From Psammoneis japonica (taxonomy: Eukaryota), in contig QPGO01000378.1 of the NCBI GenBank assembly GCA_008632985.1, positions 1 through 36,374 of the forward strand: a DNA stretch of 36,374 nucleotides, in the 5' to 3' direction. Below, piece after piece: positions 2,496 to 35,066 of the stretch. The number at the start of each line of letters is the position of its first letter. Position 1 is the stretch's first letter. The position numbers and the translations under genes were made by a program. The notes under the pieces are model-generated. The model did no database searches, was not told the DNA's origin, and saw only the letters and a list, made by a program, of their open reading frames with translations.

Positions 2496-3047
2496 AACCC
2501 ACATTTTGAATAGCATCGCCTCGCTAGAGTTTGTGTCCTTTTCACCTGGACTGGACTACATGCTTGCACAGTCTATCAGGTACTGTTCAAGTGAAAAGTT
2601 GGAGCTACTTGTGCTTCTTTACCGGTGAAAGAAACTGAATTCGAAACAGAGACGGAAACAAAAGTGGGATCCAAATTTGGATAGAGTTTCTTCTCTCTTC
2701 CAGCTGTCTCTTCGAAATTCGATGGCTCGTATTGTGTCAGTACATTTCTACGGCGGCGTGACACAAAAGTGTATCCACGACCATCGTGTAGGAAGGTACT
2801 AAGTTTTAACGTTGAAATCCAATCGTGGAGAACCCCGAAAACCATCGCGTCGAAGCGGGAATCGATCCAGATGTTCTCACAAAAAAGCAATCAAACAATC
2901 GAAACAACTCGAAATCGTAAGTTGGCAAAGACTTCGGGTTTCTTGAACACCCCGCTGCATTCACGGCCTGAGCCGTTTCTCACCTATTCTTTTGCTCAAT
3001 CCCTTTTCAGAAACAGCTTTCATCGAATTTTTCTTCCAACGAGCGAA

Positions 3048-3584
3048 ATGAAACTTTTCCTACCTACCCTCTTGCTCCTTCCTACTCTTGACGCCGAAGC
3101 TTTCGGTCTGGGACGCAGTCTCTTTACACACCCCTTGACTGTTTACCAGCCGGGTACGCTTTTCCGTGATGTTTCCTTGGACAGGCATTTACCCAACACG
3201 TCGCCGCGGTATGAAATTACCGATACCAAGGACGAGTTTCAACTCCGCGTGGACGTTCCCGGTGTCAAATCTTCCGAGATCCAAGTGAATGTCGAGAACG
3301 ACATGCTCTCTTTGAGAGGCGAACGTAAGGAAGAGAAGGAAAACTACAAGTTCTCCTCGAGCTTTTTCCAGAGTTTCAGTCTTGATCCATCCGTGGAGCA
3401 AGAAAAAATCACGGCCAAACTTGTAGACGGAGTTCTCACCGTGACGGCACCCAAGGACCCCAAGAAGGTTGACGAAATGATTCAGCGCATCCCCGTCACG
3501 GAGGAAGTGGAGGAAATTCCCGTCAATGTTGCCAAGCCCAAGGAGGACGTCAAGGATGAATCCAAAGAAACTGTCAAGGCTTAA
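3048..3584 (+). CDS. HSP20: Small heat-shock protein (HSP20), probably plastid-targeted
   Basis: ATG 3048 gives MKLFLPTLLLLPTLDAEA-FG (signal + Phe). Motifs VDVPGVKSSEIQVNVENDMLSLRGER and ITAKLVDGVLTVTAPK; clear paralog of 366-967. Confidence 0.92.
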   Translation: MKLFLPTLLLLPTLDAEAFGLGRSLFTHPLTVYQPGTLFRDVSLDRHLPNTSPRYEITDTKDEFQLRVDVPGVKSSEIQVNVENDMLSLRGERKEEKENYKFSSSFFQSFSLDPSVEQEKITAKLVDGVLTVTAPKDPKKVDEMIQRIPVTEEVEEIPVNVAKPKEDVKDESKETVKA

Positions 3585-13871: not shown

Positions 13872-15600
13872 CGAGTATTGGGGCGCAAGTTCGCTACGAT
13901 GGTTCAAGCGGCGCTCAGATGACGACTGAAATGACTATGAGTAGCTAATGTAGCTCCTATGGTTTCGCCATTTGAATACAGGGGACGACCTGAACAAGTT
14001 TCAAATCCCGGTTCTATGAAGGCGGGTCGTTTTTGACCTGCAGCACGTGAACCAGGTGGCCTGGCGTCTAATGCCTGTCTAACAAAATATCGTACATATA
14101 GAAAGTGGAACCGTTTTTTTATAGCCCCCCCTACTGTAACTATTGTTTGAGAGCATTCTGACAGGTTATGTCGCTCTCCAAATCAAAATGGACACACAAC
14201 AGGTGGTCTTTCATTCAGCATGTGACCCATCAGATATGGAGTGCCTCGAGCCAAATTTGAAACAACTTGGTCCTCACCATGCGTCAACCGACATGCATGG
14301 GGAACGCCTTTGGAGTGTCAGGTCCAAAAAACCTCCACCTGGTGATGCATTTTGGGTTTTCCCAGCAAATGATCCACACTCAAATTTGAAATTCCAGATG
14401 CTTGGATTGATGGACTGGCTCAGTGCAAGTTCTACAAAAGATTCTTTGGACCGGGTGGGTCTAAAGACATCCCCAGGAAGTTGTGGCATGACCCATGACA
14501 GAGGAAGCCCATCCCTTGCTTTGCTTCATGTCTCTTCCTTCCTTTCAGCAGCATTCAAGCAAACAGGCTGCCAGTGCAGCAGCCACTGAGGACCAGAATG
14601 AAGTCAACCTGCCCACGTGGCTGCAAATGACTCAAATGGGGTGATGAGGAGTGAGTCACCTCCTTCCAAAAGACAAGATGCAGAAAAAAATGAGGCATCA
14701 TCACCTGCCACAGAGGAACCACAAGGGACATCTGGAAGCACTCCAGAGAAAAGCAGAAGAACAAGAGGCAGAAGAAAATGTGGAAGCTCCAAAAGATTGC
14801 ACCAAAAAAGTCATAACTCAAGAGACCACATTTCACAAGGAGGAGTTTGCATGCCCTTCTTGTGACACTGAAGGAGGAACACATTTTCTCCTTCAAGGAG
14901 GGTTGACCACAGGTCATGCACACACATGAAAGTTTGGTTGTGCAGCTGAATGTTCCTCATTGATGCCAGAAAAAATTGTGAAAAACTCAGCTGGGTGTCG
15001 TTTCACAAATCCTTTTGCCACATCTGATTGGCAAAGCTGCCAGCAGCTGAACAGCTCTGGCTGCCAATGCAAAATTCTGTTGGCTGTGAGGACAACAAAG
15101 AAGCTGGTGTGATTGGCAAAAGAAGATCATGCAGCATCCTTCTTGTGCAGAGCAGCTCTCTGTGTTCCAAGAAGACAGTTTGTTGCAGGGAGACCTGGTG
15201 CATTGGCACAGTGCTTTTAAACTGGTGCATGTGCTGCCTTGGAAGCCATTGTTTTGGTCTTCGTCTTGGTGGAATCTCTCACCATTTAGAGATGGCTCCA
15301 CCAACATGTCCAAGGCCCCAAGAAGCAAAGCCGTGAGGTTCACGTTGCACTTGGCAAAGCACAAGAGGAAGCTGGTGTGTGTTCTTCTTAGCAGATGAGA
15401 CAGAGATGATGAAGGCAAACGGCCGTGCTCTTTTTTCAACAAAGATGCATCAGATTGCATTGACTGTTGCTGGTTCCATGACACAAATCCCAGGAAAGTT
15501 TTTGCACTTCACACTCCACAAATGTGGCAACACATTTTGGTCATGGTTGCACATGCATCAGATGAAAGCTGACCTTTGTTGCAAGAACAAGCAATGCAAA

Positions 15601-15914
15601 TGAGGTGCGAGTGTGAATCTGATTGCCCAGAAAATGAGTGCAAACTTCATGAAAATTGAACATTCTGCACAACCAAAAAATTGGCATTGCAAAAGATTGG
15701 GAAAATGGAAAGCAGTGCATGCAGCAGACTTGAGAGTTGCACCGCCATCATGACTGCAATTGCCATTCCAAACACTCACAGCTTTTGACCACCATGAGGC
15801 TCTGACTGGACACGGCTGATGTGATGAGCTGTGCACAGTGAGGTGCGAGTGCAAGTCTGATTGCCCAGAAAATGTGCAAACATGATAAACATTGAACATT
15901 CTGCACAACTAAAA
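15601..15914 (+). repeat. ~75 bp imperfect direct repeat (15601-15678 and 15839-15914)
   Basis: tgaggtgcgagtg..tctgattgcccagaaaatg..gtgcaaac..attgaacattctgcacaac occurs twice. Confidence 0.85.
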
Positions 15915-16009
15915 GATCGCTCTAGTTGGCTCTGAAACAGATTTCATTTTAAGACAACCCCAGTCTGTGGAAAGAATGACTCGCCAGGTCCATCGTCTTG
16001 CTGACCACC

Positions 16010-16700
16010 TCACTTTTCTTTGTTGGTTGTCAATTTCTGAGCAAGATCTTCAACTGCGGGAGTCACCCAGTCTTCTTGATTCTTGACATCATGAACTCTC
16101 TGCATGTCGAGTGCAACAGCCTTGATTTGACTGTTGACATGACACACGCCCACATTCCGCCAAGCTGCATCACCACGACGAAAGCCATCACCTGCGAAGT
16201 CCTTCACCAATGTCTGCCTTGCCGCATCCAAAGTTGACAGAGTCCTTTCCGGAGACTGAAACCAGGGCATCAACAAGGCTGTTTGGCCCTTGTCTTGTAC
16301 AACCCGAATGGTTTTGGGTGCTGGTGGAAGATGTGAGTGCACAGCTTTCCACATTTCCTCTTCATGCTTTGCCTTCAGATCAGACTCTTGGAAAAAAAAC
16401 TTCAAAACTCCAACAGCTCCCTTTGTGCCACCCAACACAAGGAAAACTCCACCATCAGCACCACGCCCAAGATCTTCCCACAGAAAAAAATTCTTGACAG
16501 TGCCTGAAATGCACAAATCAAAGTTCAAACTGCTTTGTGGTGGAGCCTTTTTCCAAGCAGAGCTCTTTTCATTGGCCAAGCACAGCACCATCATTGCACC
16601 TTCTTGCTTGGCAAGCATCATCTTTTTCACAACAGATGCAAACACAACTGCACCTGCCACGCCAGTTTGAAGTTGCTCAAGGCCTGGGTCTCACAGCAGT
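16010..16700 (-). pseudogene. Degenerate protein-kinase-like gene (Crinkler-type / DUF5898-like family, tentative)
   Basis: Gly-loop DLGRGADGGVFLV, VGVLKFF, HEEEMW, ALLMPWF, catalytic-loop-like GDAAWRNVG, VALDM. Homologous to 31608-32231. Family name is from recall only. Confidence 0.6.
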
Positions 16701-18082
16701 GTGTCGTGCATCATGGCTTGGGGGCACTGGAGCATGCTTCGGGCAACTTGGCACAATCACTCCATCCAAAAATGCTTTGTCAGGTCCCCTTCTCTGAATT
16801 CAAGCACAAGTCCTGTCATTCCCAGAAGCCCTTTCTCTTCTCTTTTGATTGCTTGTGGGTGCTGCATTGGGCACACTTCTTTTTTCAATGCAAGGTGGCT
16901 TGTTGCACTCCACCAGTTTCCCAAGGTGTGCTTGAGCAGGGTGAGCTCTTTTTCCACTTTCTCAGTGCTCTCAATGCATTTGATGGTGGAGTTGCAGAAG
17001 ATGCTCACATTGTTGTTGTTGTTTTTGGAAAGAACAGTTTTCATTGTGTGAAATCTGCAACTTGCTCTGCAATGCCATGTTGACAACACATGTGTGCAGG
17101 TGCTTCGTGCGCATGGATTGGGACAAGACTAAAAGAAAGGTTGCAACATCATGCCACTGTTTCTAAAAGTGAGATCTAAACCTGAGGAACTGCTCGGTGC
17201 CCAATCGCCAATGACAAAGCATGCCAAACTAACTTGAATTGATCACAGGGTAAATTCTTCAGTCTCCTCAAGTCGATGAATTGGACAATGTCAGAAATCT
17301 CTTTTTGCATTTGCCAACAGAACATCTGGTCAGAAATGCAAAATTCTTGACTGTGATGATGAAGCTGGTGTTGTCATGTTGGTTTTTTGAGCAGCAGATG
17401 TTCTCAGCACACCTGCAGCTGCAGCCGCCCCAGAGATCGTGCATCACTTTGACATGGAACAGCTCTCTGTGCTCCAAAATGACACAGTTTGTTTTTGAGG
17501 AAACCTGGCATCCTGGCAGCTGTGCACCATTCAAACCATCACAGAAGCCGCGGCCTCCTTTGCCAGGAGCCCGCACAACTGATGACACAGAAAATCAACA
17601 GGAGTGCAGGTGCTGCTTGCCTGTTGTTGCTTTGGCAGACATGGATGAGATGCACTGTGTCTGTTGGAGAACAAACTGTTTGATGATGAAGTGTGGGAAT
17701 TGTCTGGTGAGGCATTTTCTCTGTGTTTCTGGCGGCGCCAAAAGAGCTTCTGGAGCATGCCAGATTGGTGGCCCAAATGTGCTCTTGTGTGACACCAAAT
17801 TCATGGATGTTTGAAATGCAGGTTGGCTGGTCATGACATGCGGACATGCAAGTGCAAAGGTTGTGCAATGATGGCCTGAACAAAGAACATGGGAAAAGAT
17901 GTTGTGCATTTTGTTAAAAACTCTGCAGGTTTCACATGAACAAACATTTCATCAGACACATCTTTTCACTGAATTGCCGGATTTCACTTGAACTTGTGTG
18001 TGGAAGTCATTGTCTGATTTTGGTGACATCACAGAGGGCTTTTTGTCTCATTGCTCCTGAACTGATGTTCACAGGAAAGAAG

Positions 18083-18265
18083 ACTTGTGCAGACTTGTTG
18101 TGCTGGGTTGCACGAACTTGCACGAACTTGCATGGACTTTTTCACACTCAGGTGATTTGGTCACAAAAGCATGCACAAACTTGCATGAAAAACATGTGCC
18201 AACCTGCGCGAACTTGCTTGAGCTTGTGTGGGCTTGCGCAGATCACTTGCACAAACTTTTGCATG
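18083..18265 (+). repeat. Degenerate 10-bp tandem repeat (ttgcacgaac-like)
   Basis: ttgcacgaac ttgcacgaac ttgcatggac ... atgcacaaac ttgcatgaaa ... ctgcgcgaac ttgcttgagc ttgtgtgggc ttgcgcagat. Confidence 0.7.
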
Positions 18266-20303
18266 ACATTGCCCACCATGGCTGCTGTCATCATCACATT
18301 CGGTGACTGGCCACATTGAAGAAGGACATTTGATCAACAAATGAAATCCAGCAACTGATGAAGTGCAAAAACTTAGACATTTTCATTGTTTGAAGGAGAC
18401 GATGTCACTCGTTGTCACCCGGCAAGTGACAACAAGAACAACAAACAACAGTTGCCAGTTGACATGTGTGCTTTCATCATCTTGGTGTCAACTCCACATG
18501 CAATCATGAAAAATTGAGTGACAGCATTTGTTGCATTCTTGTTTTGAGCAAGAAAGCATTTGCCAAAATGATGCACATGTTTGAAAGTTCGTGCTCCTAA
18601 TTTCACACACACAAGCAGCCAAAAGCCAAGAGTGTGGCTTCAGCATTGCCACTTCTGATAGAGCTGGTCACAATGTGTTGTTTCTGACATTGACAAGGAA
18701 GCTGGTTTCTTTGTGGCCCATGTTCAATTGAAGCCTGTGCAGGCCCTGGGGATCTCCTCAAAGAAGTTTCTTTTTCAGACAGCGCAGAGACACATGACCA
18801 CCAAAGGTGGGGGGCACTTGCTGTTTTTGCAGTCATGAACAAAAACGTCTGCTTGCACATGTTTTTTGCTTTGTTGATGGTGAAGATGGGCATGATTGGG
18901 GAGCCTCACTCTGTGCCTTGGTCACCCCATTTCCAGAGCTTGGCGTTTGACGCAACATGGCAGAATCTTTTGAAAAATCATGCACCTTCGAGGGACGGGC
19001 AGGCTCTCTGTTTTTTGGAGCAAGTCGGGAGCAGGAATGGCCCATCTCACTTGGAAGCACACATTTTGCTCTCCAGGGGAGGGGGGGCTTGCTGCAATCA
19101 TGCTTGTCATCAGGTGAAAGATGCCAAGACAGACCCATGCTTCTGCTGAAGTGGAAGAAAGCCCCTCTTCTTCAATGTCAGAAATCACAAAAAAAGACTG
19201 AGCTGGGCTCTGTTTCACAACTTCTCTTGCATCTGATTGACAAAGCCACCAACAGCTTGCCTGGTCACAAGCAAAACATTCTTGACTCTGTGTGGGAGTT
19301 GGCAGCATTGCCAGGTTTGTCTGTGGTTTTGGGCATGTTCTCAGCAATGTTCTTGTGGCTGGCTGCAACCCTGGAGCCAATTCAGTGCCTTGCCATGGAG
19401 CAGCTCCATGTGTTCCAAGAGTGCAGCTTGTTTTCACAGAAACATGACATCCCATGCATCATTGCTTCAAGTCAGCATGGTTTGCCACTGGCCGCCATCA
19501 CACCAAAATGGTGAGGAAACCAGGGGACGAGGCACCAGCAGCTCACGCAAAGAAACATCCAACAGCGTTGGACCAGGCACTTCATGACAGAGTGAGTGTC
19601 AACGGGAATGTGGGCACCACCACTTGCCCACAGTTGCTTTGACTGGTGTGAATGAGACATGCTGTGTCTGATGAAACATGCAGGTGGGATGTTGTTTTCT
19701 GTCTGCCCTCTCACAAAGAAGTCAGAAGCGCAACCACCAAGTGCAGGAGCTTTGGCACCGCCATTCCCAATGGAGTTGGGCAACATGCTGTTTCCAATTT
19801 GAAAAGGAAATTGGTTTCTTTGTCACCTGTGTGATCAAAGCCTGTGCACATCTCTGCCCCCAAAGTGTTCTCAAGGTTTTGCATCGCCACACATGCCAGC
19901 ACCACATGACCATGAGAGAGGAGGAGGACAGCGTGCCCCCAGAGACACCAAAGGTGGAATCCACTCACTGTTTGTGATCATCCACATTGTTTCTGTTCCC
20001 AAACATTCTTCACTTTCTCAATGCCGAAGATGGGCATGACTGGGGAGTTGGACTGCACGCCCTTGTTCTCGAAGTACGACAGTGCAGCTTGGCAGCTTGG
20101 CACTTGAAAAACCACGCACCTCCGCCCGATGATGTTTCGGCGATTGAGTCGTCGGGAACGGCCCATCACCTGGACAATGTTGTGACATACTGTAGTAGCC
20201 GTTCAGAGAGAAGCCACGTAGAAATAGTACTGCAACGAAAGTAGAGCGTCCGTCCGTTGCGTCGTTCACGCAAAGATCCCCAAGATCGCGAAAAACCACG
20301 CAC

Positions 20304-21057
20304 GAGTGGCGTACTTTCCAAAAGTGCGGTGCGCAGTACTCGTCTACATACGGACAAATAGCACTAGACTCTACGCACCGAACACAACAAGATTTCACTC
20401 ATTACGACAACAGCAGGGAAGTCTATCATGTCGGGTATATCGACGTTATTGCGCTTCTTGCGTATAAAAAATACATCAATCCACTAATATTACGCATGCG
20501 AATTGGATGGGATACAGGATCTTGCAAATCTGGTGAAAAAATCGTCCCCCCGTGCTTCACCGTGTTAAAAACCCCGTGCTAATCCTCCATAAAATGAATG
20601 AAAATCCAACTTTTCGTCAAAATCTGTTGTCGCGTGCTCACTTCAGTGCTTCATCAATGCGATCGACCGAGAAAACACAAAATACACCCCAAAAAAAGTG
20701 AAAAACAACAGTCCCACCGCGGCCAAAACCTCTACGTGATTTCAGTACCAAGTTGTACGTGCCAAAAACCCTTCGTCACCAATGGCTCAACCAGCTCCCA
20801 AAACAACTCGATCATTGTCATTTGACATTGATATCTCATTTCTTATCATATCAGTTGTTGTCTCGGTGCATCATAACCTCCCAGTCCGCTGTCGTTGTTG
20901 TGTGCGTCCATTGCCGATGTCGCGGCGTCGTTGCCGTGATGTTTGTGTGTGAAGTGAATTCAAATAAACATCTCTACGAATTTTGTAGTACATTTTTACG
21001 TACGTATATTTTGTGTAGATTAGGTATGCGCACCGAATTTTTGAAAGTACGCCACTC
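20304..21057. repeat. Imperfect ~45 bp inverted repeat pair (20304-20348 and 21014-21057)
   Basis: The reverse complement of 20304-20348 (tgtagacgagtactgcgcaccgcacttttggaaagtacgccactc) aligns to tgtagattaggtatgcgcaccgaatttttgaaagtacgccactc. Confidence 0.75.
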
Positions 21058-21182: not shown

Positions 21183-24100
21183 ATGAGCGGGTTGAACGCG
21201 TCGCAAGCAGACTTTGCCAAGCTACGGCAACATGTCCTTCAGTTTCTCAAAGAGCTTCGACGAGGCGACTTGTACGTATATGGGTTTGAAGCAGACGACT
21301 TTGATCATCTACTTGATTCGGACGGGAATGCTCCGCCTCTACAAGAAAAGACACATGTGTTTAATCGACTCTTGTTGGCGGTGGCACGAGAGCTTTCCGC
21401 TGGAAGCACGAGAAAGCGAAAACTAATCCTTGAGCAACTTTATTCGAACCTTGACGACTGGGTGGAAGCAATTAAAAACTTTGACGACAAGGCAGTCAAG
21501 AGCGAAACAGATGACGAATATCGAGGTACGTCAACTGCAAGTAGACAAGAACTTAAAACGGCAGAGGAAATTGATGCTGACACAAAGCTGGAAAAGAAAA
21601 TCGAAAAAGAGTCGACGAAATCTCGAGAAGAAAGCCTTCCCGAGACGCAGGATGAGATTGTGGATGTTTCTAAGGAAAAATCTGATGAAGTGAAGGTGAA
21701 ATCTATACCCAGAAAGAAAAGCAAAAAGAGAAAGTCAGAAGAAAAATCTGGAGAAGAAAGCCTTCCTGAGAAGCACAAAGAGCCTTTGGGTGTGAACGCG
21801 GAAGACGATGACCTAGAAAAGGTGAGATCTAAACCCAAGAAGAAAACCAAGAAGAGAAAACCAACTTCAGCTAATAATATCGAGGAGGAGGTGAGAACCC
21901 AATCGAAAAAGAAGAGCAAGAAGAGAAAATCAGCTGAAACCTTTGGAACTGAAACCGAAGACAATATCGAGGAGGTGAGATCGAAACCGAAAAAGAAGAG
22001 CAATAAGAAGAGAAAGTCAGCTGAACCATCTGGAGCTGAAAGCATTCCTGAAAAGCATGAAACGTCCTTGGATATGCAACTGGAAGACAGTGACGAAGCG
22101 AACACGATATCTAAACCTAAAAAGAAAATCAAGAAGAAAAAATCAGCGGAGAAGACTGGAAGAGAAAGCCTAGGTGAGAACCGTGACGAGAAGCCTTTCG
22201 ATTTGAACGTGGAAGAAAGCGACGAAGAGGAGTCTGCAGCAATACCCAGAAAGAAAAATGGCAAACAAAGATCACGTTCGGTCGAGAAAAAAGGGAACAA
22301 TCACGACGGAACAGAACAGCAAGCTGAACCACCCGAGCAAGAGGACCTAGCAAATGTCAGTCCTTCTGTCATTGCCAAAAGAGAAATCATGAAAAAAGAA
22401 TTCGAACAAGAAAAGGAGAGGATCATGTCTGGAATACCGGATGATGTGCGTTCCCAGTTTGGCCAAGTCGGATTTGCCAAGTGGTCCGGAGACTATCTTC
22501 CAGTCCTGTTTCTGAGCCCATACCATGTACCCCCTGGGGAGGTGCGCGAAAATTGGATGGCAATGTACAAGAACGTGAGTTACATACCAGCGCAACAACT
22601 CCGTCTTTCTTTTCTGAAAACTCTAAATCCTTGTCCTATTTTTATGATTTTTGCTAAACCCCAGACCAGGAACCGTAGAAGCAGCATGACGAGACTTGTT
22701 TATTGGTACGGAGAGCAAAATATGGAGGTAGCATTCTCGTTTTTGATTAAGAAGCATTGCATATCGTACGAGGAGGGGGTTCAAAAGGGCAAGCACAAGC
22801 TCAAGCGGGCTATCCAGAAAAAGGTGGACGCCGGCAAAAAGTTATCGGAAAAGGAGCAAGGCATGGTGAGAGGGTTGAAAGAAATCAATGCTGACGCCAT
22901 GAAAGACCCCAAGGATAGAAAGCTACCCTTTCCAAATTTTTTCGAGGAACACGAGGTTTTCGGACTTGAAGAAGACGAGGAAGTGGATGAAGAGCTTATC
23001 AGTAGTGATGAGGAACCGTCGCCAGTGAAGAAGAACGGATCGAAAAAAGTAGACCAAGACCTTGTTAGCAGTGACGATGAAGCACCGCCAAGAAAGAAGC
23101 TGCATAAAACATTTAAGAAAATCGACGAAGAGCTGATAAGCAGTGATGATGCATCGTCACCAAAGAAGAAGCCAGAGAAAGGATCAAGGAAAATCGACGA
23201 AGAGCTTGTGAGCAGTGATGACGAGCCGTCACCAAAGAAAGGATCGAAGAGAATCGACGAAGAGCTTGTAAGCAGTGATGACGAACCGTCACCAAAGAAA
23301 GGATCGAAGAAAGAGAACGAAGACCTTGTTAGCAGTAATGACGAAATGTCACCAAAGAAAGGACCGAAGAAAAAGAACGAAGAACTTATCAGTAGTGATG
23401 ACGAACCGTTGCCAAAGAAAGGATCGAAGAAAGAGAACGAAGATCTTATCAGCAGTGATGATGAACCGTTGCCAGAAAAACAAATGGAGAGAAAGGACGA
23501 AGAGCTTATAATTAGTGATGACGAGCCGTTGCTGGAAAAAGGATCAAAGAAAGGACCGAAAGAGCGAGATCGCGGAGACAATTCGCACGTTTCGGAAGGA
23601 CAAGACTTGGCGGAAAACGAAGTCTCATCGGGCGAGGAATACGAATATGCCGTCTCGAGCGAGGATAATGACGCTGATCAAAACTACGAACCGGAAACAA
23701 CCGCGAAAGCGAATAAGAAGAAACACGCGATTTACCGTCCAAAACTTCAAAGACGAAGCCAAAAAAGGCAAAGATTAACCGCAAGAGAAGCAAGGCAGCT
23801 ACTAAAGCCCGAGGAACAAAGGCAGATAGAATCAAGGCTGAATGGAGAAAAGAACAGCGCAAGTTCGAGGAGTGCGAAGATAAATTCCTTCCGTTGGAAG
23901 AGCGTTGGACATCGTCTCTCAAGACTGGAGACACCAGCGATCTTGCTGCGGTGATCAACGAGCTCTCTCATTTTGTCGATTCGCTGTCTCCCACATTCAT
24001 TGAGACTTACCAACTCGCTCGACTTATGAAGAAAACAAAACCAATTTTGAAGAATATGGAGACAGAGTACGGAGTGTATAAGAATGTATGGAACACAATG

Positions 24101-27450: not shown

Positions 27451-28677
27451 GATGAGTCAAACGACGAACCGTACGAGTTCTCAGTTCCTAGTCACCATAG
27501 CTATTGTAGTCGGTTTCCTTCGCAAAGTAACAGACTCATGAAGGATATAGCTTCAAAACTGGTTGAATGTGCTCACCCAGTTCATCAGCATTGACCAACA
27601 CAGCAATGTCTGCCCATGCATGGTGGTGTGGAAATGCCGCCTCTTAGACTCCACTTGTGGGGGTTGTGGGTGCACAGGCTCGTGGTGCCATGCATGGTGT
27701 GGCTCTCGGTTGCCAGTCCCTGAACTGGAGAGTGCAATTTGAAGCTTTCTCCATTGCCACAAAACAATGCTGACTGCACAAGTGCCCTTTTGTGGATGAG
27801 TCTAAATCATTGCCACTAAAAGCCATGTCAAATGGTGGCTGCACAAAGTCACACATGTGATGGGAAATCTCAAACCCATCTTCCACCTGATCTCCTTCAT
27901 CACATGAGAGAAATCACTTTGTTTTAATTCAACAACACATTTGTTGCAACATGCCCTTTGATGAGTGGATTTGCCATCAAACAAAGTTGTGATCTCATGT
28001 GTTGTTTGTGGGTGCACTTGAAGGTGTTCCTTTGTCTTGATCCATTTTTGCTTCAAACAAGAGAAGATCATTGACCAGCACATGTGAGAGTTGAATCTCT
28101 CACTCAGCTTTCAGTGCATTTCAATTCTCCCTTGAAGCATTCTGGAGCCCATGGAAAAGGTGTCCTCACCTGTCCCACTGGCAGCAACAATGTGTTTTCA
28201 TGTTGCAGTTGTTTTGACATGGTGCACATTCTTGTTTGAGCTCCTCCACACAACATCCCAACTCCCTGCACCCCACAGCCCACACCAGCAGCCCCACATG
28301 CCTGCCCAAAACTCTGAAAATTGATGGTCGATGTTGTTGCAGCTGCTTGCAGCGGACACAAGAACCAAGCCCAACTTGGACTTTGTGGACCCGGTGGAAC
28401 TCAAAGAAGACACCAGCAGGTGAAGCATCCTGCTTGAAATGTTCCTTCTCACAATGGAGGTTGTCCATGCCCTTGTTGAAGCACAAATGTTGGGCAATCT
28501 TGACCTGGGAGGTTGCAAGATCATGCCAAAGGGCATTTTCAGTGGCAGCCAAGGAAAGTGCCCTCCATGGAGCTGGGGCACAACTCAGCGCAGCAGTGGA
28601 TGGGTTTGTGAACCCAAACATGACAACCAATCACAGCCTTCACAGTGGCAAAGGCAATGTGGGCTGTGCCTTGATCC

Positions 28678-30500
28678 ATGGACACAACAGAGGCAGCAGC
28701 ACCTCTGCAAGACATGCTGGTGGCTGCAGTGAGCAATGCAGGCCCAGATGAGTCAGCACATGACACCATGACAAGTTTGTCAACATGTGCCAATGTGGGG
28801 TTGGCATTTGGTGCTGCAAGGGGCACTGCTGCCAGAGTGGTCACATGCGGCACAGCCTTGGATGCAACAGGCACAGCCATGCCTGCAGAAGACATGCTTG
28901 CATGTCCACAGCAGTCAATGCAGGTTCCAACAAGGAACCATGTGCCACCATGACAAGATTGTCAGTGGCACGGACTGATGAAGGAGTTGCGCTCTTTGTC
29001 AAATGGGGCACAAGCACTTGGTCAGTCACATGCTGCACATTTTTGGATGCATGAGATGTGAGAACATCTCCACAATGCCTGCTTGGTGTTGCACATGGCA
29101 GCACAGGACTTGACGGGTTGGTGCACAAGTCCATGACAAGGTCAGATGTGGGCAGCAATGGGGAGGGAAGATTTGTTGAAGAGCCTCAAGGTCAGCAAAC
29201 AACACTCTAAGGACCTTGACAAGCTCAGCGAGGTGCTCAAGGAGAACCTTGATCACCTGCAAGTCCATGAGTGTGGTTGCATTGACACCAAGTTTTGTGT
29301 TTTTGATTCTCACATCATTTCTTCTCAAATCATGCATTGTGCACACACAGAAGTTGGCAGTTAGCCATGGTGGCACAAGTGGAGAAAGAGAAGCCATCGA
29401 GGGTGTCTCTGCCTTTTTGAACAGTGATGATGAGCACCGCCAAGAGCTTGCATGTGAGCCCAAAAGCACAACCATGATTTGTGCACATTCTTTGCCAACA
29501 AAAAGGACAATGCCAAGGCACCTTGCATTCATGGCATTGCCCCGTGAACAAGAAAAAGAAGCAAGCTGAGATTGTGCTTCAAGGGATGGCAAATGTGTCA
29601 CTCAAGAATGCCTGGTGAGATTGGTCCAGCAACTTCAAAGCAGCATGGAAGGGCAAGAGTCTGATGAGGAGTCTCTAAAACAGGAAAAGGTTGAGCAGTG
29701 GGGGCACTCTTGCAGAGTCCAATTCATTCTTCTTGTGTGACAGAGACAGGAGTCAAATCCTGACACTGATGCAGAAAAGAATGATGATGTCATCAACAGC
29801 GCCTTTTTGTGCCAGGGCTTGATCCAAGTCCTTCTTGGCTCTTGAAAGAGCAAGATGAGGCCCATTGACAAGATTGTTCAGGAAGACATCAAGCCGCTTG
29901 TGCAACTGGGTTTCTGGCAAGTCTTGCATGAGTTGAAAAAAATCAAAGTCATTGTCTGCTTTCTAACCAAGATTGCAGATTGTGCATCAGTGGTCACTCA
30001 TTGGGTGGTGTGATTGCAACACTGTTTGGATTCTGCATGGCTGCAGATCCAGACCTTGCCAAAGAAGGGCCCATCATGGTTTGCACATTTGCAGTGCCTC
30101 GTGTCAGTGATGCTGCCTTTCATGAAGGTGCCTTTTTGTCCTGGACTGAGATTTCAAGCATGCAAGTGCAGGGGAGTTGCACCTCTCATGCTTGACTTTT
30201 TTCTCTTTTGCAGTCCCTCAACTGCCCTGGCCAGCCGGACTTCACAAACATGATGGCATGGAGGTGCGACTTTGAAAGGATGGACCTCCCGTTGTGGATT
30301 GTCCAGTCAAATGCTCTTGGCAACAATCTGGCTCAGGGGTCATGAAAAGCATTGCCTCAATGCCACAAGCCTTGATGTGTCATTCCTGCAAAGAAATGCT
30401 GAAACGATTCAAGAAGTCCAAGGACGCTTTTCTCAAATCGACACTGGAGCACAAATGCCGTTCCATGAGCGGAATTTTAACGTGTCGAGAAGACGGACCC
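28678..30500 (+). pseudogene. Class-3 lipase (Lipase_3, alpha/beta hydrolase) pseudogene
   Basis: CISGHSLGGVIATLFGFC...VCTFAVPRVSDAAF (GHSLGG nucleophile elbow; the family has YTFxxPRVG). At ~29525-29595, CIHGIA.VNKKKKQAEIVLQGM matches the family's YGI.VN...KR..VVFRG(S/T). Multiple stops and frameshifts; ends approximate. Confidence 0.8.
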
Positions 30501-30533
30501 AAAAGAATGCACTGTTGACACTAAAAACATCAA

Positions 30534-31031
30534 CCCTTCAACCACCAGGGGAGCAAATCTCCACGGGTGGAGATTTGCTCTGCTTGAGGATTTGTGGTGT
30601 GTCATGCACTTTTACAACAACACAATGTGCACAGCACAAAAATGTCATGCCACGTAGAATCTGCGTAAAGTGTGCCACGTGCATTTGCTTGTTGGGAGCA
30701 AATCTCCACCGGTGGAGATTTGCTCAAAGGGTGTGGTGTTAAAGCTCTGTTTGAGACAGCAATTCATGATGACCTCCATTGTCATAGGTTGAGATTTAGT
30801 TCCTCTCTATCCACAGATGCAGCTTGCAAAAAACCCGGTGTTAAAAGTCGACATTGAACTTTCTAAATTAAAAAAAGGGTTCCCCCAGGTTCTTGGCGAA
30901 TGCACATTCCAAAACAAAATCGCGCGAACAAAATGTCACTCACATCTGAAATTACTTGTTTTGCTGTGTTTGTGATGCAAGGGAGCAAATCTCCACCCAT
31001 GGAGATTTGCTCAAGTCCGGTGGTTGAAGGG
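30534..31031. mobile_element. Non-autonomous piggyBac-like MITE (~500 bp) with TCAA flanks and three internal 30-bp palindromes
   Basis: TIRs CCCTTCAACCACC (30534-30546) and GGTGGTTGAAGGG (31019-31031). TCAA flanks both ends (30530-30533, 31032-31035). GAGCAAATCTCCAC-NN-RTGGAGATTTGCTC occurs at 30551-30580, 30696-30725 and 30983-31012. Confidence 0.8.
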
Positions 31032-31607
31032 TCAAGAGTGCTTGTGTGTTCACGATTGGCGCTCACAAGCTCTCGCGCCAGGCCAAATCAAATCGTGTGA
31101 AAAGTGGGAAATTGGGAGCTGGTGGCTGTCCTTTCAGTGATTTGCACAATCGTTGTGTGCTGGAGTGCACTGAGGAAACATTCCAATTGGGCTGCGCACG
31201 CTGCAGGCCAAATGAGTTCTTGTGCAAAGCCTGTGCGTGCTTGCAAGTGCAACTTGCGGCTTCCACACAGAAGTGAGGAGAGCCCCAAACACACTTTTTC
31301 TCAATTGAGACTTCCTGAATGGAGTCTGACTCCATTGAGTGCAGCACACAGAAGCTTTTACAACCTCGCTGTTTTGCCGTTCATGGGGATTGCAAAGACT
31401 GCAAAGCGAGTGAATTGCATTTACAAGAAAATGACAAATGTCCATGCTGGAAGGCACAGGGAAGCAACACGAAGTGAAACAATGCAATTCTACAATCTAA
31501 GAGAGCACCTCCACAGAGACAGTCTTCTAGCTGAAGAGCATGCTTCTCTCATCATGAACAATGCAGCCTTTGCTGGCGGCTCCACACTTGCACAGCATCG
31601 TCCTCAC

Positions 31608-33200
31608 CTACGACCCCTCCACAAAAGGCAACTTCTCAGAGTCACATGGGACTTCCTGGGCATTGAGAGGTTTGCTCTCTTGTTGGACTTCCCGTGGAGC
31701 ACGATCTTCTAATTTGCGGCAGCGCTCCTCCACAAACGAATCATTTTCCGCCTGCTCCAAGTTGCCAAGATCACAAAGGACGCAATTTTCCTTGTGGGTC
31801 CCGATGTGATGCCATCGGATGTCCTCCTCTTTGTGCTTCAATCGCTTTGCATGGAACACATCCTTTAGCACCTTCCTGATGTCGGGCAGCTGATCCCTGC
31901 AGCCACTGGCACTCGTTGCCATGGGTTCAAATGACGGCATTTTGACACAGCAAAAGCCAAAGACATTTGTGACTTCCACCTCATCTGCTAAAAATGGGTG
32001 GAAATCGCAAAGCAGCTTCGCCTCATGCAAAGTTGCACCTTCTGCCTTCTCCTTGAACTCGTTCCATCCCACAGTGTCACCTGTGGTGACGTCTGCATTG
32101 TTGACATGCACCTTCAATGCGACTTGCTTGCCACTCAAATCCAACGCATGGAAGATGTTAGAGGTTGTGCCATGTCCAACGATCCCGATGACATGGAATG
32201 CTGCATCATCATCTTTGTCCACCAGCTGCACTTTGGAGCTCGTTGAGAGAGCAGCATCTCTGGGTCAACTTTTCCGGCTCTCCATCTTGTCACCTGGTCT
32301 GACAAACAGATCCCCCCACAGGCATTTCTTCACTGCAGTTTTCGATGTGGCCGAGGAGCTTTTGTTCAGCACTCGCAGCACTTTTGGAAAGCAGCAGTTT
32401 CCATTGGACTTGAGCTTCAACATGCTCCGCATGGACTCTCTGCAACTCTTCTTAGCAATTCTCAGAGCAGTGCAGACAAGCTTTGCAAGCTCATGAGACT
32501 CGAGCTCCTTGGATTGCAACATCTCTCGGCCTCCAGTTCCCTTTGTGAATAAATTCCTGAAATCCGCCCCACTGGCGTTCGAACCCGGGGATGAGTCGCA
32601 GGAGACGGGTGGCACCATGGGCAGTTCCGCATTCTCCCAGGACAAGTTGGACTGCCGGGGCGGCGACGATTGCGGTTGATTGCGATCTTGCTTGATGATT
32701 GTGGCTGCGGGCTGGCAGGTGCTTCTTCTCCATCTCTTCCATCATTTGTTTCTTCATCGAACTTAAGTTCTTCCAGAGAGCATGGAATGGACTTCTCAAA
32801 TGCAGTGAGAAGGACGAGCCCATTTCCTTCTTGTCCAAACACATCATCAGAGTGCACGAAATGTTAAAAATGTGCAGATTTGCATGATGACAATTTGTCA
32901 AAATGTTGCAAAACATTGTTGTCATGTGATGAAAGGCCAACCTCTGGTTGCAAGTCAGCTGTGCCAATGTTGCAACAACTCACCAAGAATCATGCATGCC
33001 ATTTTTCACTGCACCCACATCACTGTGTCTGCCTCCACCTTGTTGCCACATGCCAATGCGTGATTGCATTTCCACACAATCCTTGGTTTGTTGATTTTCG
33101 CAAACATTGTTTTAAACGAGAAGAGCATTTCGTCGGTTGGGTCAATCCCTTGTTGCATCTGCAGTGCAATGACCGAGTGCCATGTAAACTGTGCACACAT
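31608..33200 (-). pseudogene. Degenerate protein-kinase-like gene (same family as 16010-16700)
   Basis: VIGIVGHGTTSNIFHAL...VALKVHV...HEAKLL...VKMPSFEP...EEDIRWHHIG..CVLCDLG, with upstream fragments in other frames (SHELAKLVCTAL, FPKVLRV). The 5' limit is approximate. Confidence 0.65.
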
Positions 33201-34441
33201 TTTCTTGCTGCAACTCTCTTAAACTGAGCCAACGATCATCATCGGACTCGTCTCCATCGGACTCGTTTCCTCTGTCATCCGTTTTGCCTTTTGTGCCTTC
33301 CTCCTGCTCATCGTCGTTGCTGTTGTTGTCCCTGCTGCTCTCCACCATTGGGCTGTTCATTGCCTTCACCTTGTCCGTGTCACCGGTCGGTGCTTTCTTT
33401 TTCTTCTTTTTTGCTTCTCCGGACTTCTTGCACTTGCTTTTCTTGATCTCCGCATGCCACTTTTCAAACTCCTTGCCCTCCTTGGAGTCTCTGTCTTTCG
33501 TCACCTCTTCACACAAATCGTTGAAAAGATTGATTCCGTCGTCTCCCCAAGACACTCGTTGTTTCTTTGGTTTCATGCACCGAGGGGCAGGCCTTGTTTC
33601 TTTGGGCTCCATTTCCTCACCCAATTCTTCCACCGCCTCCTCCTTGTTCCTGTGTGCCCACACCTGCCAACAATTCTCCATGGCCAACAGCACCAAAGCT
33701 TCGTCACCGACCGTAAACAACTGTGAGACCTTTGCATTCCCAGTTTTGACGGTGCTGCTCCGTGCCTGCTTTTGCTTGGTTTGAGGCAGGATGTGATCAC
33801 AGAACCACTTGTGTGCCTGCTTGTTCCTTCGTTTACCGCCGGTGACAGTGTCCAGGCTAAACGGATCCCATGTCGGCACAAACGGGATGTCATTCTCTTC
33901 ACTCTTGTCACAGCTTGACTTTTTCCTCTTTTTCCTCCTGTCTGCCGCCTTGAGTTTCTTTTCTTTTTCCTTTCCCTCTTCCTCAGTGACAACGCCTGCA
34001 TGGACAAAGCATCACCGTCATCTTCTTGTGAGACACGCGCAACTCTCGAATCACACACATTGGTCACTTGACTTGCGGGCCATTGCCTCCGCCCCAATGG
34101 CCGAACACACCGTGTTTCCGCGATTGTCAATTTGCCTTTTTACCGCCTTTTTTGCCCATTCCTCCCAAGTTCCTGACCAATTTGAAGTGTCCATGTTGCC
34201 ACCAGCAGATCTGTTTCTTGACAAAACATTGAGACGCTCCATTGCTTGCCAATTCTGATGGACTGAGAAAATTCACCTGTGGAAAGAGATCATTTCCAGC
34301 CACCTTCTCTGCTTCTGATTTCAATGCACCATGTGCTGCCTGCGCACCTGTTCTCTTCAACACTGCCTGAAGTCTCGGGCTCATTGGCTCAACAGTCTCA
34401 TTTTTCTTTCTCTTCTTTGCCGGTTGTGCTGGAGACGACAT
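33142..34441 (-). pseudogene. Degenerate repeat-associated ORF (TxxDEAxxLLxxEN family; possible DNA-transposon accessory gene)
   Basis: WFCDHILP...FTVGDEALVLLAMENCWQVW...WGDDGINLFNDLCEEVTKDR...FE. I recall this motif pattern from multicopy diatom ORFs. Upstream fragments include LFPQVNFL. The transposon link is inference. Confidence 0.5.
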
Positions 34442-35066
34442 CTTGATCTTTTCACGGCAACAGTGAGAGGAGTGGCACTGTTCGACAGTGCAACCGTCAT
34501 TTGGGTCGTGTTGAGACAGCCAGCCACTCTATTTTTCTCTGTGACATTGCACAAACCATTGTCAGCAACATTGAAATTTGAAAACACATTTGTGCACAAC
34601 AATGAACAGCCCAACTTGCTTTTTGACATGGCTGTCATTGCATTTCAACGGAGACAATGTCCTGCATTTTGATGGTGAATAAAAAGCACAACATTCATTG
34701 TGGATGCCAGATAAAAAATCAAAATGCAGGTGCGTGACACCCACAAGAATCATCCCAATCTGGAAGACAATGCAATGTTTGCCAATTTCCCGCCATTTTT
34801 TGTGTGTTGTTCTTTTTTTCCCTTCTCATCCACAAGACAAGGACACGAGCATGAGTCTTGATGAAGGCCCTGTCAATGTTGTCTGATTTGCAATGGACGG
34901 AAACCCTCTTCTCTGTCCCAGTTGTGGCCAAAGTTTTTTGCAAATGGCCTGCCATTGGAGATGCTCACCGACGTGTTGCGCAGTTGCCCAAGAGTTGCAA
35001 ACCCAAGATCCAATCCCAGATCAAAGCAACATTCCTGCCACAACAGAGGGGCCACCCAAAGAAAGC

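Follow-up and report, generated by a model that had tools for sequence, protein, structure and literature searches.

Structure of the element and its locus

The window, i.e. the whole stretch of 36,374 nucleotides analyzed here (Psammoneis japonica, contig QPGO01000378.1), harbours a 498-bp element with perfect 13-bp inverted ends, abutted on either side by the tetranucleotide TCAA. A preliminary description had taken this element for a piggyBac-like MITE flanked twice by TCAA, which is borne out by its perfect ends and by further copies of the same family. The following features are located at the locus:

28001..35000, no strand: TA-erased, CG-poor domain holding the element (from TA counts per 500 bp)
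29169..31143, no strand: interrupted host sequence, a TA-erased paralogue of TA-intact DNA (G000 C195/C143)
30530..30533, + strand: left target-site duplication, reads TCAA; presumably TTAA originally (sequence and family flank table)
30534..31031, no strand: non-autonomous piggyBac-like MITE, 498 bp (family comparison)
30534..30546, + strand: left terminal inverted repeat CCCTTCAACCACC, family sequence unaltered, without TA
30551..30580, no strand: subterminal palindrome of 30 bp with a 13-bp stem, 4 bases inward of the left repeat
30696..30725, no strand: internal copy of the 30-bp palindrome
30983..31012, no strand: subterminal 30-bp palindrome, 6 bases inward of the right repeat
31019..31031, - strand: right terminal inverted repeat GGTGGTTGAAGGG, perfect complement of the left repeat
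31032..31035, + strand: right target-site duplication, reads TCAA; presumably TTAA originally

The palindrome at 30551..30580 is a possible transposase binding site. Four more 13-bp inverted pairs spaced 100–1000 bp apart occur elsewhere in the window, so that such a pair taken alone carries little weight. The matter is settled by the family: a search of the 91-Mb genome yields 134 exact 13-bp repeats (64 in forward and 70 in reverse orientation) versus 4 for a reversed control, the best 40 of 122 scored candidates align over ~400–570 bases with 81–100 % identity, dozens of copies match the whole 498 bp, and homology between copies ends at the terminal repeats. The MITE at 30534..31031 is real and represents one of dozens of dispersed copies.

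Within the domain at 28001..35000, TA counts range from 0 to 5 per 500 bp outside the bin of the element (12 TA), compared to 9–42 in gene-rich parts of the window. A second region of this kind extends from 14501 to 20000; both display near-total TA loss, low CG content and sharp borders with gene-rich DNA. An open frame on the minus strand at 16010–16690 matches DUF5898, and the frames at 269–967 and 2685–3584 resemble small heat-shock proteins. A 60-bp coding tandem repeat resides in an acidic protein at 22978–23539. The 15-bp inverted pair at 20304–21057 (~750 bp apart, in TA-intact DNA) is possibly another small element.

At its 40 ancestral TA sites the window copy reads CA at 15, TG at 14, TA at 10 and AA at one. 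The interrupted host sequence around it aligns in three pieces (29169–30127, 30184–30477 and 31068–31143) with its TA-intact paralogue, of whose 49 TA 21 read TG, 18 CA, 2 TA and 8 other in the window. Searches yielded three paralogues for the left flank of the element and none for the right one; around the point of insertion, the best of these paralogues has diverged too far for the tetranucleotide of an empty site to be read. Contigs from sequencing run X1, which may represent the same sample, span both junctions and contain no element-skipping joint; run X2 gave nothing. The same insertion with identical TCAA flanks is present on a second contig (L002; G000 C358:20076-23641), and 6 of the 13 differences from the window copy inside the element are TA versus CA/TG. 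Mutation therefore continued after the two loci had split. The alignment of both contigs ends near window position 31872, and run X1 contigs bear the C358 alleles in the flanks. Locus L002 thus probably represents either the other haplotype or a duplication of recent date.

Affiliation of the family

The family is short, dispersed and multicopy (63 two-ended copies were tabulated), 116 of the 152 ends recovered with ≤2 mismatches carry its terminal repeat without deviation, and the target-site duplication reads TTAA/TTAA in 5 of 7 TA-rich pairs, versus TCAA/TCAA in the window copy itself. Neither an Rfam match nor a match to piggyBac proteins was obtained within the copies. Terminal inverted repeats of piggyBac elements are short and start with CCC or CAC, i.e. 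with pyrimidines (PMC10140906). Kolobok elements, known from diatoms, likewise generate a TTAA-specific 4-bp duplication and have RR...YY ends (PMC9587614); the family, in contrast, ends with CC...GG. The TTAA duplication together with CCC...GGG ends fits a piggyBac-like family and not Kolobok.

The preliminary description had further suggested CCCTTTAA as the original terminal repeat. This form was found at only 1 of 152 ends, that of an erased copy, and genome-wide twice versus 4 times for the control, i.e. at chance level, and was rejected as the ancestral repeat within the family. CCCTTCAA is read at all 13 recovered ends of TA-rich copies, and the lone CCCTTTAA end most plausibly arose by subsequent mutation. 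The loci behind the 152 ends were for the most part collected via the exact repeat, which biases that count; the genome-wide count of CCCTTTAA is independent of this bias.

An autonomous partner with the same ends had also been envisaged. From 20 scored candidates 16 matches to the DDD transposase domain PF13843 were obtained, and neither the ends nor the interior of the element occur in the 14 enlarged PF13843 regions among the matches listed; a second protein search for piggyBac transposases added one further place, and these searches provide lower bounds. Another complete piggyBac family of the genome has different ends. A 3.18-kb pair of ends on C107 (L059:1501-4680 of G000) was rejected as autonomous partner, since it is a family copy into which an unrelated element of ~2.7 kb is nested; one end of the latter is TA-rich and its body erased. 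A different piggyBac-like MITE of 635 bp with CCCCGCTCCC termini and TTAA at both ends is located at L114:7910-8544 (G000 C205). Outside the genome, the single metagenome match is bacterial and due to chance, and all 36 matches of the element to viral contigs align over ≤24 bases.

Target-site duplications across the family

Flanks were tabulated for ends collected from 100 listed of the 134 exact repeat matches, supplemented by places that two more restrictive patterns and a pair of DNA searches yielded. The copy set is large and incomplete; 167 ends were reduced to 152 by dropping 15 repeats of one insertion, and 63 clean pairs (7 TA-rich, 56 TA-poor) remained after removal of 2 out of 65 as double pairings. 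The 13 ends beside TA-rich element sequence, read from outside inward, comprise 11 TTAA, one TTAG and one CCAA. Beside TA-poor sequence, 139 ends read TTGA (40), TTAA (37), TCAA (34), TTGG (11), CCAA (5) or others (12). TTAA is enriched at the TA-rich ends (11/13 vs. 37/139; Fisher p=6e-5), and none of these 13 ends reads TCAA or TTGA, meaning that the TCAA flanks in young copies which would have spoken against later mutation were not encountered. The seven TA-rich pairs consist of five TTAA/TTAA, one TTAA/CTAA (L022) and one CCAA/CCAA (L061), the latter being one instance of matched non-TTAA flanks, which the preliminary description had listed as counter-evidence. Identical flanks are found in just 11 of the 56 TA-poor pairs, at least one TTAA in 27 and TTAA at both ends in 5. 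The mixture of TTAA, TCAA and TTGA, differing between the two ends of one copy, corresponds to what the preliminary description had predicted for mutation after insertion.

Among the 15 pairs that are singly changed at both ends, mirror pairs of the type TCAA/TTGA number 9 and pairs with like ends 6. Mirror pairs imply mutation after insertion, since duplication cannot yield them; independent mutation yields them in about half of the cases. Two other piggyBac families of the genome also have TTAA and TTGA flanks. At the level of the family, post-insertion change of the TTAA duplications by TA to CA or TG is well supported by the sequence comparison. That both flanks of the window copy were converted from TTAA by TA to CA, as proposed earlier, thus holds for the family; for the window copy, for which an empty site was not obtained, we infer a TTAA origin of the two TCAA flanks. 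They were exposed to the process, because 29 of 40 TA sites of the copy itself had changed.

Alternatively, the window copy could have entered a pre-existing TCAA in previously erased DNA, TCAA/TCAA then being a true duplication. Its flanks are identical, erased DNA contains about seven times more TCAA than TTAA (~7.5 vs. 1.0 per kb), and the TTAA/CTAA and CCAA/CCAA pairs illustrate that the family sometimes uses non-TTAA sites. The element moreover retains 10/40 TA versus 2/49 in its flank and is probably younger than part of the flank erasure. Against such an insertion stand the absence of TCAA and TTGA from the 13 TA-rich ends, including the five that sit within erased DNA (4 TTAA, 1 TTAG), the excess of mirror over matched pairs (9 to 6), the exposure of both flanks indicated by the 29 changed sites, and the central TA retained in published non-TTAA targets (PMC3849761, PMC3064801). 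Insertion into TCAA is therefore very improbable, and insertion at TTAA followed by mutation is preferred.

TTGG or CCAA flanks amount to 17 of 152 ends. They occupy 16 of the 139 TA-poor ends versus 2 of 142 readings at three internal TTAA sites (a count from which one polymorphic site was omitted), and are not accounted for by single TA changes, because internal TTAA sites rarely yield them. It may be guessed that these ends result from insertion at CTAA/TTAG, a minor piggyBac target (PMC3849761, PMC3064801), followed by one TA change; against this origin, unchanged CTAA/TTAG ends as well as the products CTGA and TCAG are rarer than predicted. The copy with CCAA/CCAA flanks (L061:1001-2749, G000 C123) carries a 1.25-kb nested insert and is crossed by the border of an erased domain, its left half being TA-rich and its right half erased. 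For annotation of such genomes, mismatched TTAA/TCAA/TTGA flanks should be counted as decayed TTAA.

Loss of TpA from the copies

Mutation spectra were determined from 58 near-full copies, 8 with 28–50 TA and 50 with ≤12 TA per 500 bp. Three duplicates of the same insertions (L002, L063, L064), used as controls, and 17 of 498 columns at which the TA-rich copies disagree were left out. In the 50 TA-poor copies, the 1710 ancestral TA site-copies read TG (727), CA (699), TA (213), CG (18) or other (53), i.e. 1426 of 1497 changed site-copies are TG or CA. TA is regarded as ancestral, because it is the sole neighbour of both products and is carried by the TA-rich copies and the TTAA scars. The reverse change, CA to TA, accounts for fewer than 11 of 2634 sites in erased copies. 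The strand bearing TAC or TAT is preferred, with TAC mutated 236 times versus 36 for TAA, and TAT 160 times versus 67 for TAG. Rates of A>G in TA context are 0.655 (TAC) and 0.554 (TAT); outside TA they are 1–9 %, which may include subfamily changes.

Single copies contain both CA and TG without strand coordination (chi-square 60.9 on 51, p 0.16), and adjacent sites are alike in 565 of 1087 cases (589 expected). CA/TG states of 51 independent copies coincide no more often than expected by chance (1274 pairs, z sd 1.00), the maximum z of 3.2 being attained in 20 % of 200 permutations; the three single-insertion duplicates agree at 30/30, 30/30 and 27/27 sites. The copies were thus each mutated at their own site, and none of the erased ones in the set gave rise to another. 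RNA-stage editing was rejected in view of the changes in flanking DNA and in both strands of a DNA transposon.

The outer 300 bp contain ≤3 TA at 124 of 139 erased ends and ≥9 TA at 8 of 13 TA-rich ends, so that position governs exposure. Age contributes as well, since divergence outside these sites is likewise higher in TA-poor copies (8.0 % vs. 2.8 % in TA-rich copies, on which the reference was built). TA content is bimodal in the window, in 1118 bins of retrieved DNA and among the copies. One paralogue of host-like DNA (29169..31143) is erased alongside mobile DNA, and genes are spared.

Other piggyBac families display the same loss. Three 96 % identical copies (L115, L116 and L117; G000 C85, C71) are all TA-erased and have many CA versus TG conflicts, i.e. 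young copies erased independently; their left flanks read TTAA, TTAA and TTGA. A further family with CTCTTTGTT... ends (L118:2108-6644 of G000 C214, L113 and L112) has TTAA at both ends of L118 and TTGA at the left of L113 and L112. Its erasure takes the form of 0.5–1.2 kb patches placed differently in each copy, covering the initial 1.2 kb of L113 and a segment around 3.0–3.5 kb in L118. This patchy family represents the process caught midway and supplies its patch size. A TA-poor patch is common to two insertions of another piggyBac family, as might result from mobilization after partial erasure; older relatives do not establish earlier TA-richness of this patch.

Consequences for mobility

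In the preliminary description, altered TTAA flanks were thought to impair remobilization and TpA erasure to provide a concrete defensive benefit against piggyBac. Accordingly worded as an alternative, change of the TTAA scars and removal of TTAA targets would immobilize piggyBac elements, as a main benefit of the erasure. None of the 51 erased copies founded another insertion, and in the structure of T. ni piggyBac flank hairpin bases form some contacts with the protein (PMC7351741). Silencing or earlier loss of the transposase explains the absence of erased founders equally well. Excision of T. ni piggyBac requires no TTAA flank, integration of elements without TTAA flanks proceeds with comparable efficiency (PMC7351741), and precise excision from TTAG sites was observed in yeast (PMC3064801). 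Altered scars thus probably do not stop such elements from moving; the published data, which concern another element, carry the weight of a strong prior rather than of proof. The terminal repeats contain no TA and are unaltered; with the first TA of the element at base 48 and the last at base 445, its ends are out of reach of the process.

In 692 erased versus 272 intact 500-bp bins TTAA has a residual frequency of 0.45, the highest of all 16 NTAN words, which overall retain 0.10 (ATAT 0.003), and 27 of the 56 erased pairs have kept at least one TTAA (5 both). For TA-inserting elements the loss of targets is real, since a tenfold decrease of TA and a ~300-fold decrease of ATAT would remove their targets in erased DNA. 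This loss is confined to repeat domains, which alone might steer insertions to genes. Immobilization through scars and targets is on balance quite unlikely. Heavier damage appears in the transposases: the long frames of three erased piggyBac transposases (453–574 residues) contain no tyrosine, versus 18–24 in four others, and His or Cys stands at 33 of 40 aligned tyrosines of erased copies (from slightly overlapping alignments). Loss of tyrosine is the likelier cause of damage than change of the scars.

Proposed course of events and responsible chemistry

The most probable reading, to which we assign a probability of about 0.85, is that a piggyBac-type MITE inserted at TTAA and underwent TpA transitions thereafter, its scars being a record of this process. 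A transposase acting in trans would have moved the MITE into TTAA, which was duplicated, as seen in the family and presumed for the window copy. The latter resides in a chromosomal domain struck by TpA-directed transitions. In these, the TA step becomes TG or CA, i.e. A>G after T on either strand with TAC and TAT favoured, and a changed step is immune thereafter. Acting on chromosomal DNA after insertion and separately on each copy, the process altered the two TTAA scars of family members independently, TCAA at both scars being one ordinary outcome in the family, and left the TA-free terminal repeats untouched. The altered scars would be a record rather than a mechanism of defence: excision probably needs no intact scar, judging from T. 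ni piggyBac, TTAA targets are just halved, and the heavier damage, as seen in other piggyBac families of the genome, falls on transposase codons, chiefly by tyrosine to histidine or cysteine changes.

The leading candidate for the responsible chemistry, at about even odds, is deamination of DNA adenine, for which an enzyme of the TadA/ADAT type would be targeted to methylated chromatin of repeats. TadA favours TAC-like sites, a context preference for which no support was found in the literature searched. Nine PF00383 matches were detected in the genome, two or three of them TadA/ADAT2-like by motif and none tied to the process; TadA/ADAT-type genes are universal, so their presence carries no weight. 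At L150:313-1785 (minus strand; G000 C79), one frame combines DIOX_N and 2OG-Fe(II) oxygenase domains with a deaminase domain that bears HAE and PCxxC motifs, and probably serves nucleoside metabolism.

Two other chemistries were considered. Errors of a Y-family polymerase following repair of deaminated methyl-CpG would require no dedicated enzyme and agree with the coinciding losses of TA and CG between classes (9 %/9 % in 9 TA-rich copies, 80 %/47 % in 51 TA-poor copies) and with transitions on both strands without strand coordination. Error-prone polymerases of this family have a WA motif, so that changes should be more frequent following A than following C. A>G after A (AAC 0.064, AAT 0.054, AAA 0.023) is, however, not above that after C (CAC 0.088, CAT 0.058, CAA 0.012) and about ten times below the rates for TAC and TAT. 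Furthermore, TA loss is ahead of CG loss in the TA-poor copies (12.5 % vs. 47 % unchanged, the latter 388 of 832 CG site-copies), and the correlation between both losses is weak among the erased copies (rho 0.25, p 0.07). Polymerase errors are accordingly unlikely, if the more serious of the two competitors. Modification of thymine in place of adenine (T>C in RTA, e.g. via oxidized or otherwise modified T) draws on the fact that TpA is its own reverse complement, so that A>G and T>C are indistinguishable in sequence. We know of no T to C route operating at such a rate. Adenine deamination, on the other hand, is an established route and has been proposed for Bigelowiella natans, which renders modified thymine improbable.

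Comparison with known systems

With T. ni piggyBac (PMC7351741), Pokey and mPok (PMC3849761) and the elements of the bee (PMC10140906), as described in these sources, the family shares the TTAA duplication, CCC...GGG ends, a terminal repeat of 13 bp, unequally spaced subterminal repeats, the occasional use of CTAA/TTAG and, as for MITEs, the lack of coding capacity. It differs in that its subterminal repeats consist of a 30-bp palindrome present three times, and in that ends of the non-TTAA type (CTAA/CCAA class) make up about a quarter of pairs, compared to 2–12 % in the literature consulted.

TpA hypermutation has been described for integrated NCLDV and virophage DNA of B. natans, where the signature was measured in 15 mutation-accumulation lines on two single-copy viral inserts that still contain TpA (3.3 % and 9.2 %) and an adenine deaminase, with ADAT2 as candidate, was put forward as a proposal (Mettrop et al., 10.64898/2026.01.13.699255). 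Both systems have in common TpA>TpG and TpA>CpA transitions limited to foreign or mobile DNA. An on/off behaviour, which B. natans displays as a raised rate per generation in some lines only, may be shared as well; the enrichment of TpA-poor coding sequences of B. natans for DDE and reverse-transcriptase domains is counted as a further likeness. In contrast, the present process was deduced from copies, is near saturation, concerns a DNA-transposon family together with its target scars, and occurs in a diatom-like genome. It also has a preference for pyrimidine at +1 that spares TTAA. The main text of the preprint carries no mention of piggyBac, diatom, TTAA, target site, context or MITE. No report of the TpA signature in diatoms was found in the literature searched, which excluded most subscription journals.

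RIP of ascomycete fungi introduces C>T transitions into repeat DNA and thereby creates TpA. Like the process described here, it is dinucleotide-specific, acts on chromosomal repeats and can reach duplicated host-like sequence. The direction is opposite, as TpA is removed here by TA>CA/TG, and RIP itself was rejected on these grounds. Unlike in RIP, strand coordination within copies is absent, and repeated copies in TA-intact surroundings escape, so that position seems weightier than homology. It is possible, though we hold it only tentatively and at less than even odds, that an active A>G analogue of RIP operates, in which a host adenine deaminase would edit TA(C/T) in double-stranded DNA of silenced repeats and remove tyrosine codons from transposases, piggyBac-type elements persisting by virtue of TA-free ends and the least-edited TTAA. 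If true, the MITE family would provide a ready-made 40-site reporter for a search for the enzyme.

Chromosomal A-to-G mutation as defence has been reported once, from an unrelated alga. The ~60 copies of the present family supply before and after states at 40 sites and at two target scars each, and fix the direction, the in-place timing, the action on both strands, the independence between copies and the preference of TAC/TAT over TAG/TAA. On this basis candidate enzymes can be put to a direct test, and an editor of DNA adenine occurring in nature would be of importance to base editing. The family is an ordinary piggyBac-like MITE that records an unusual process with great clarity.
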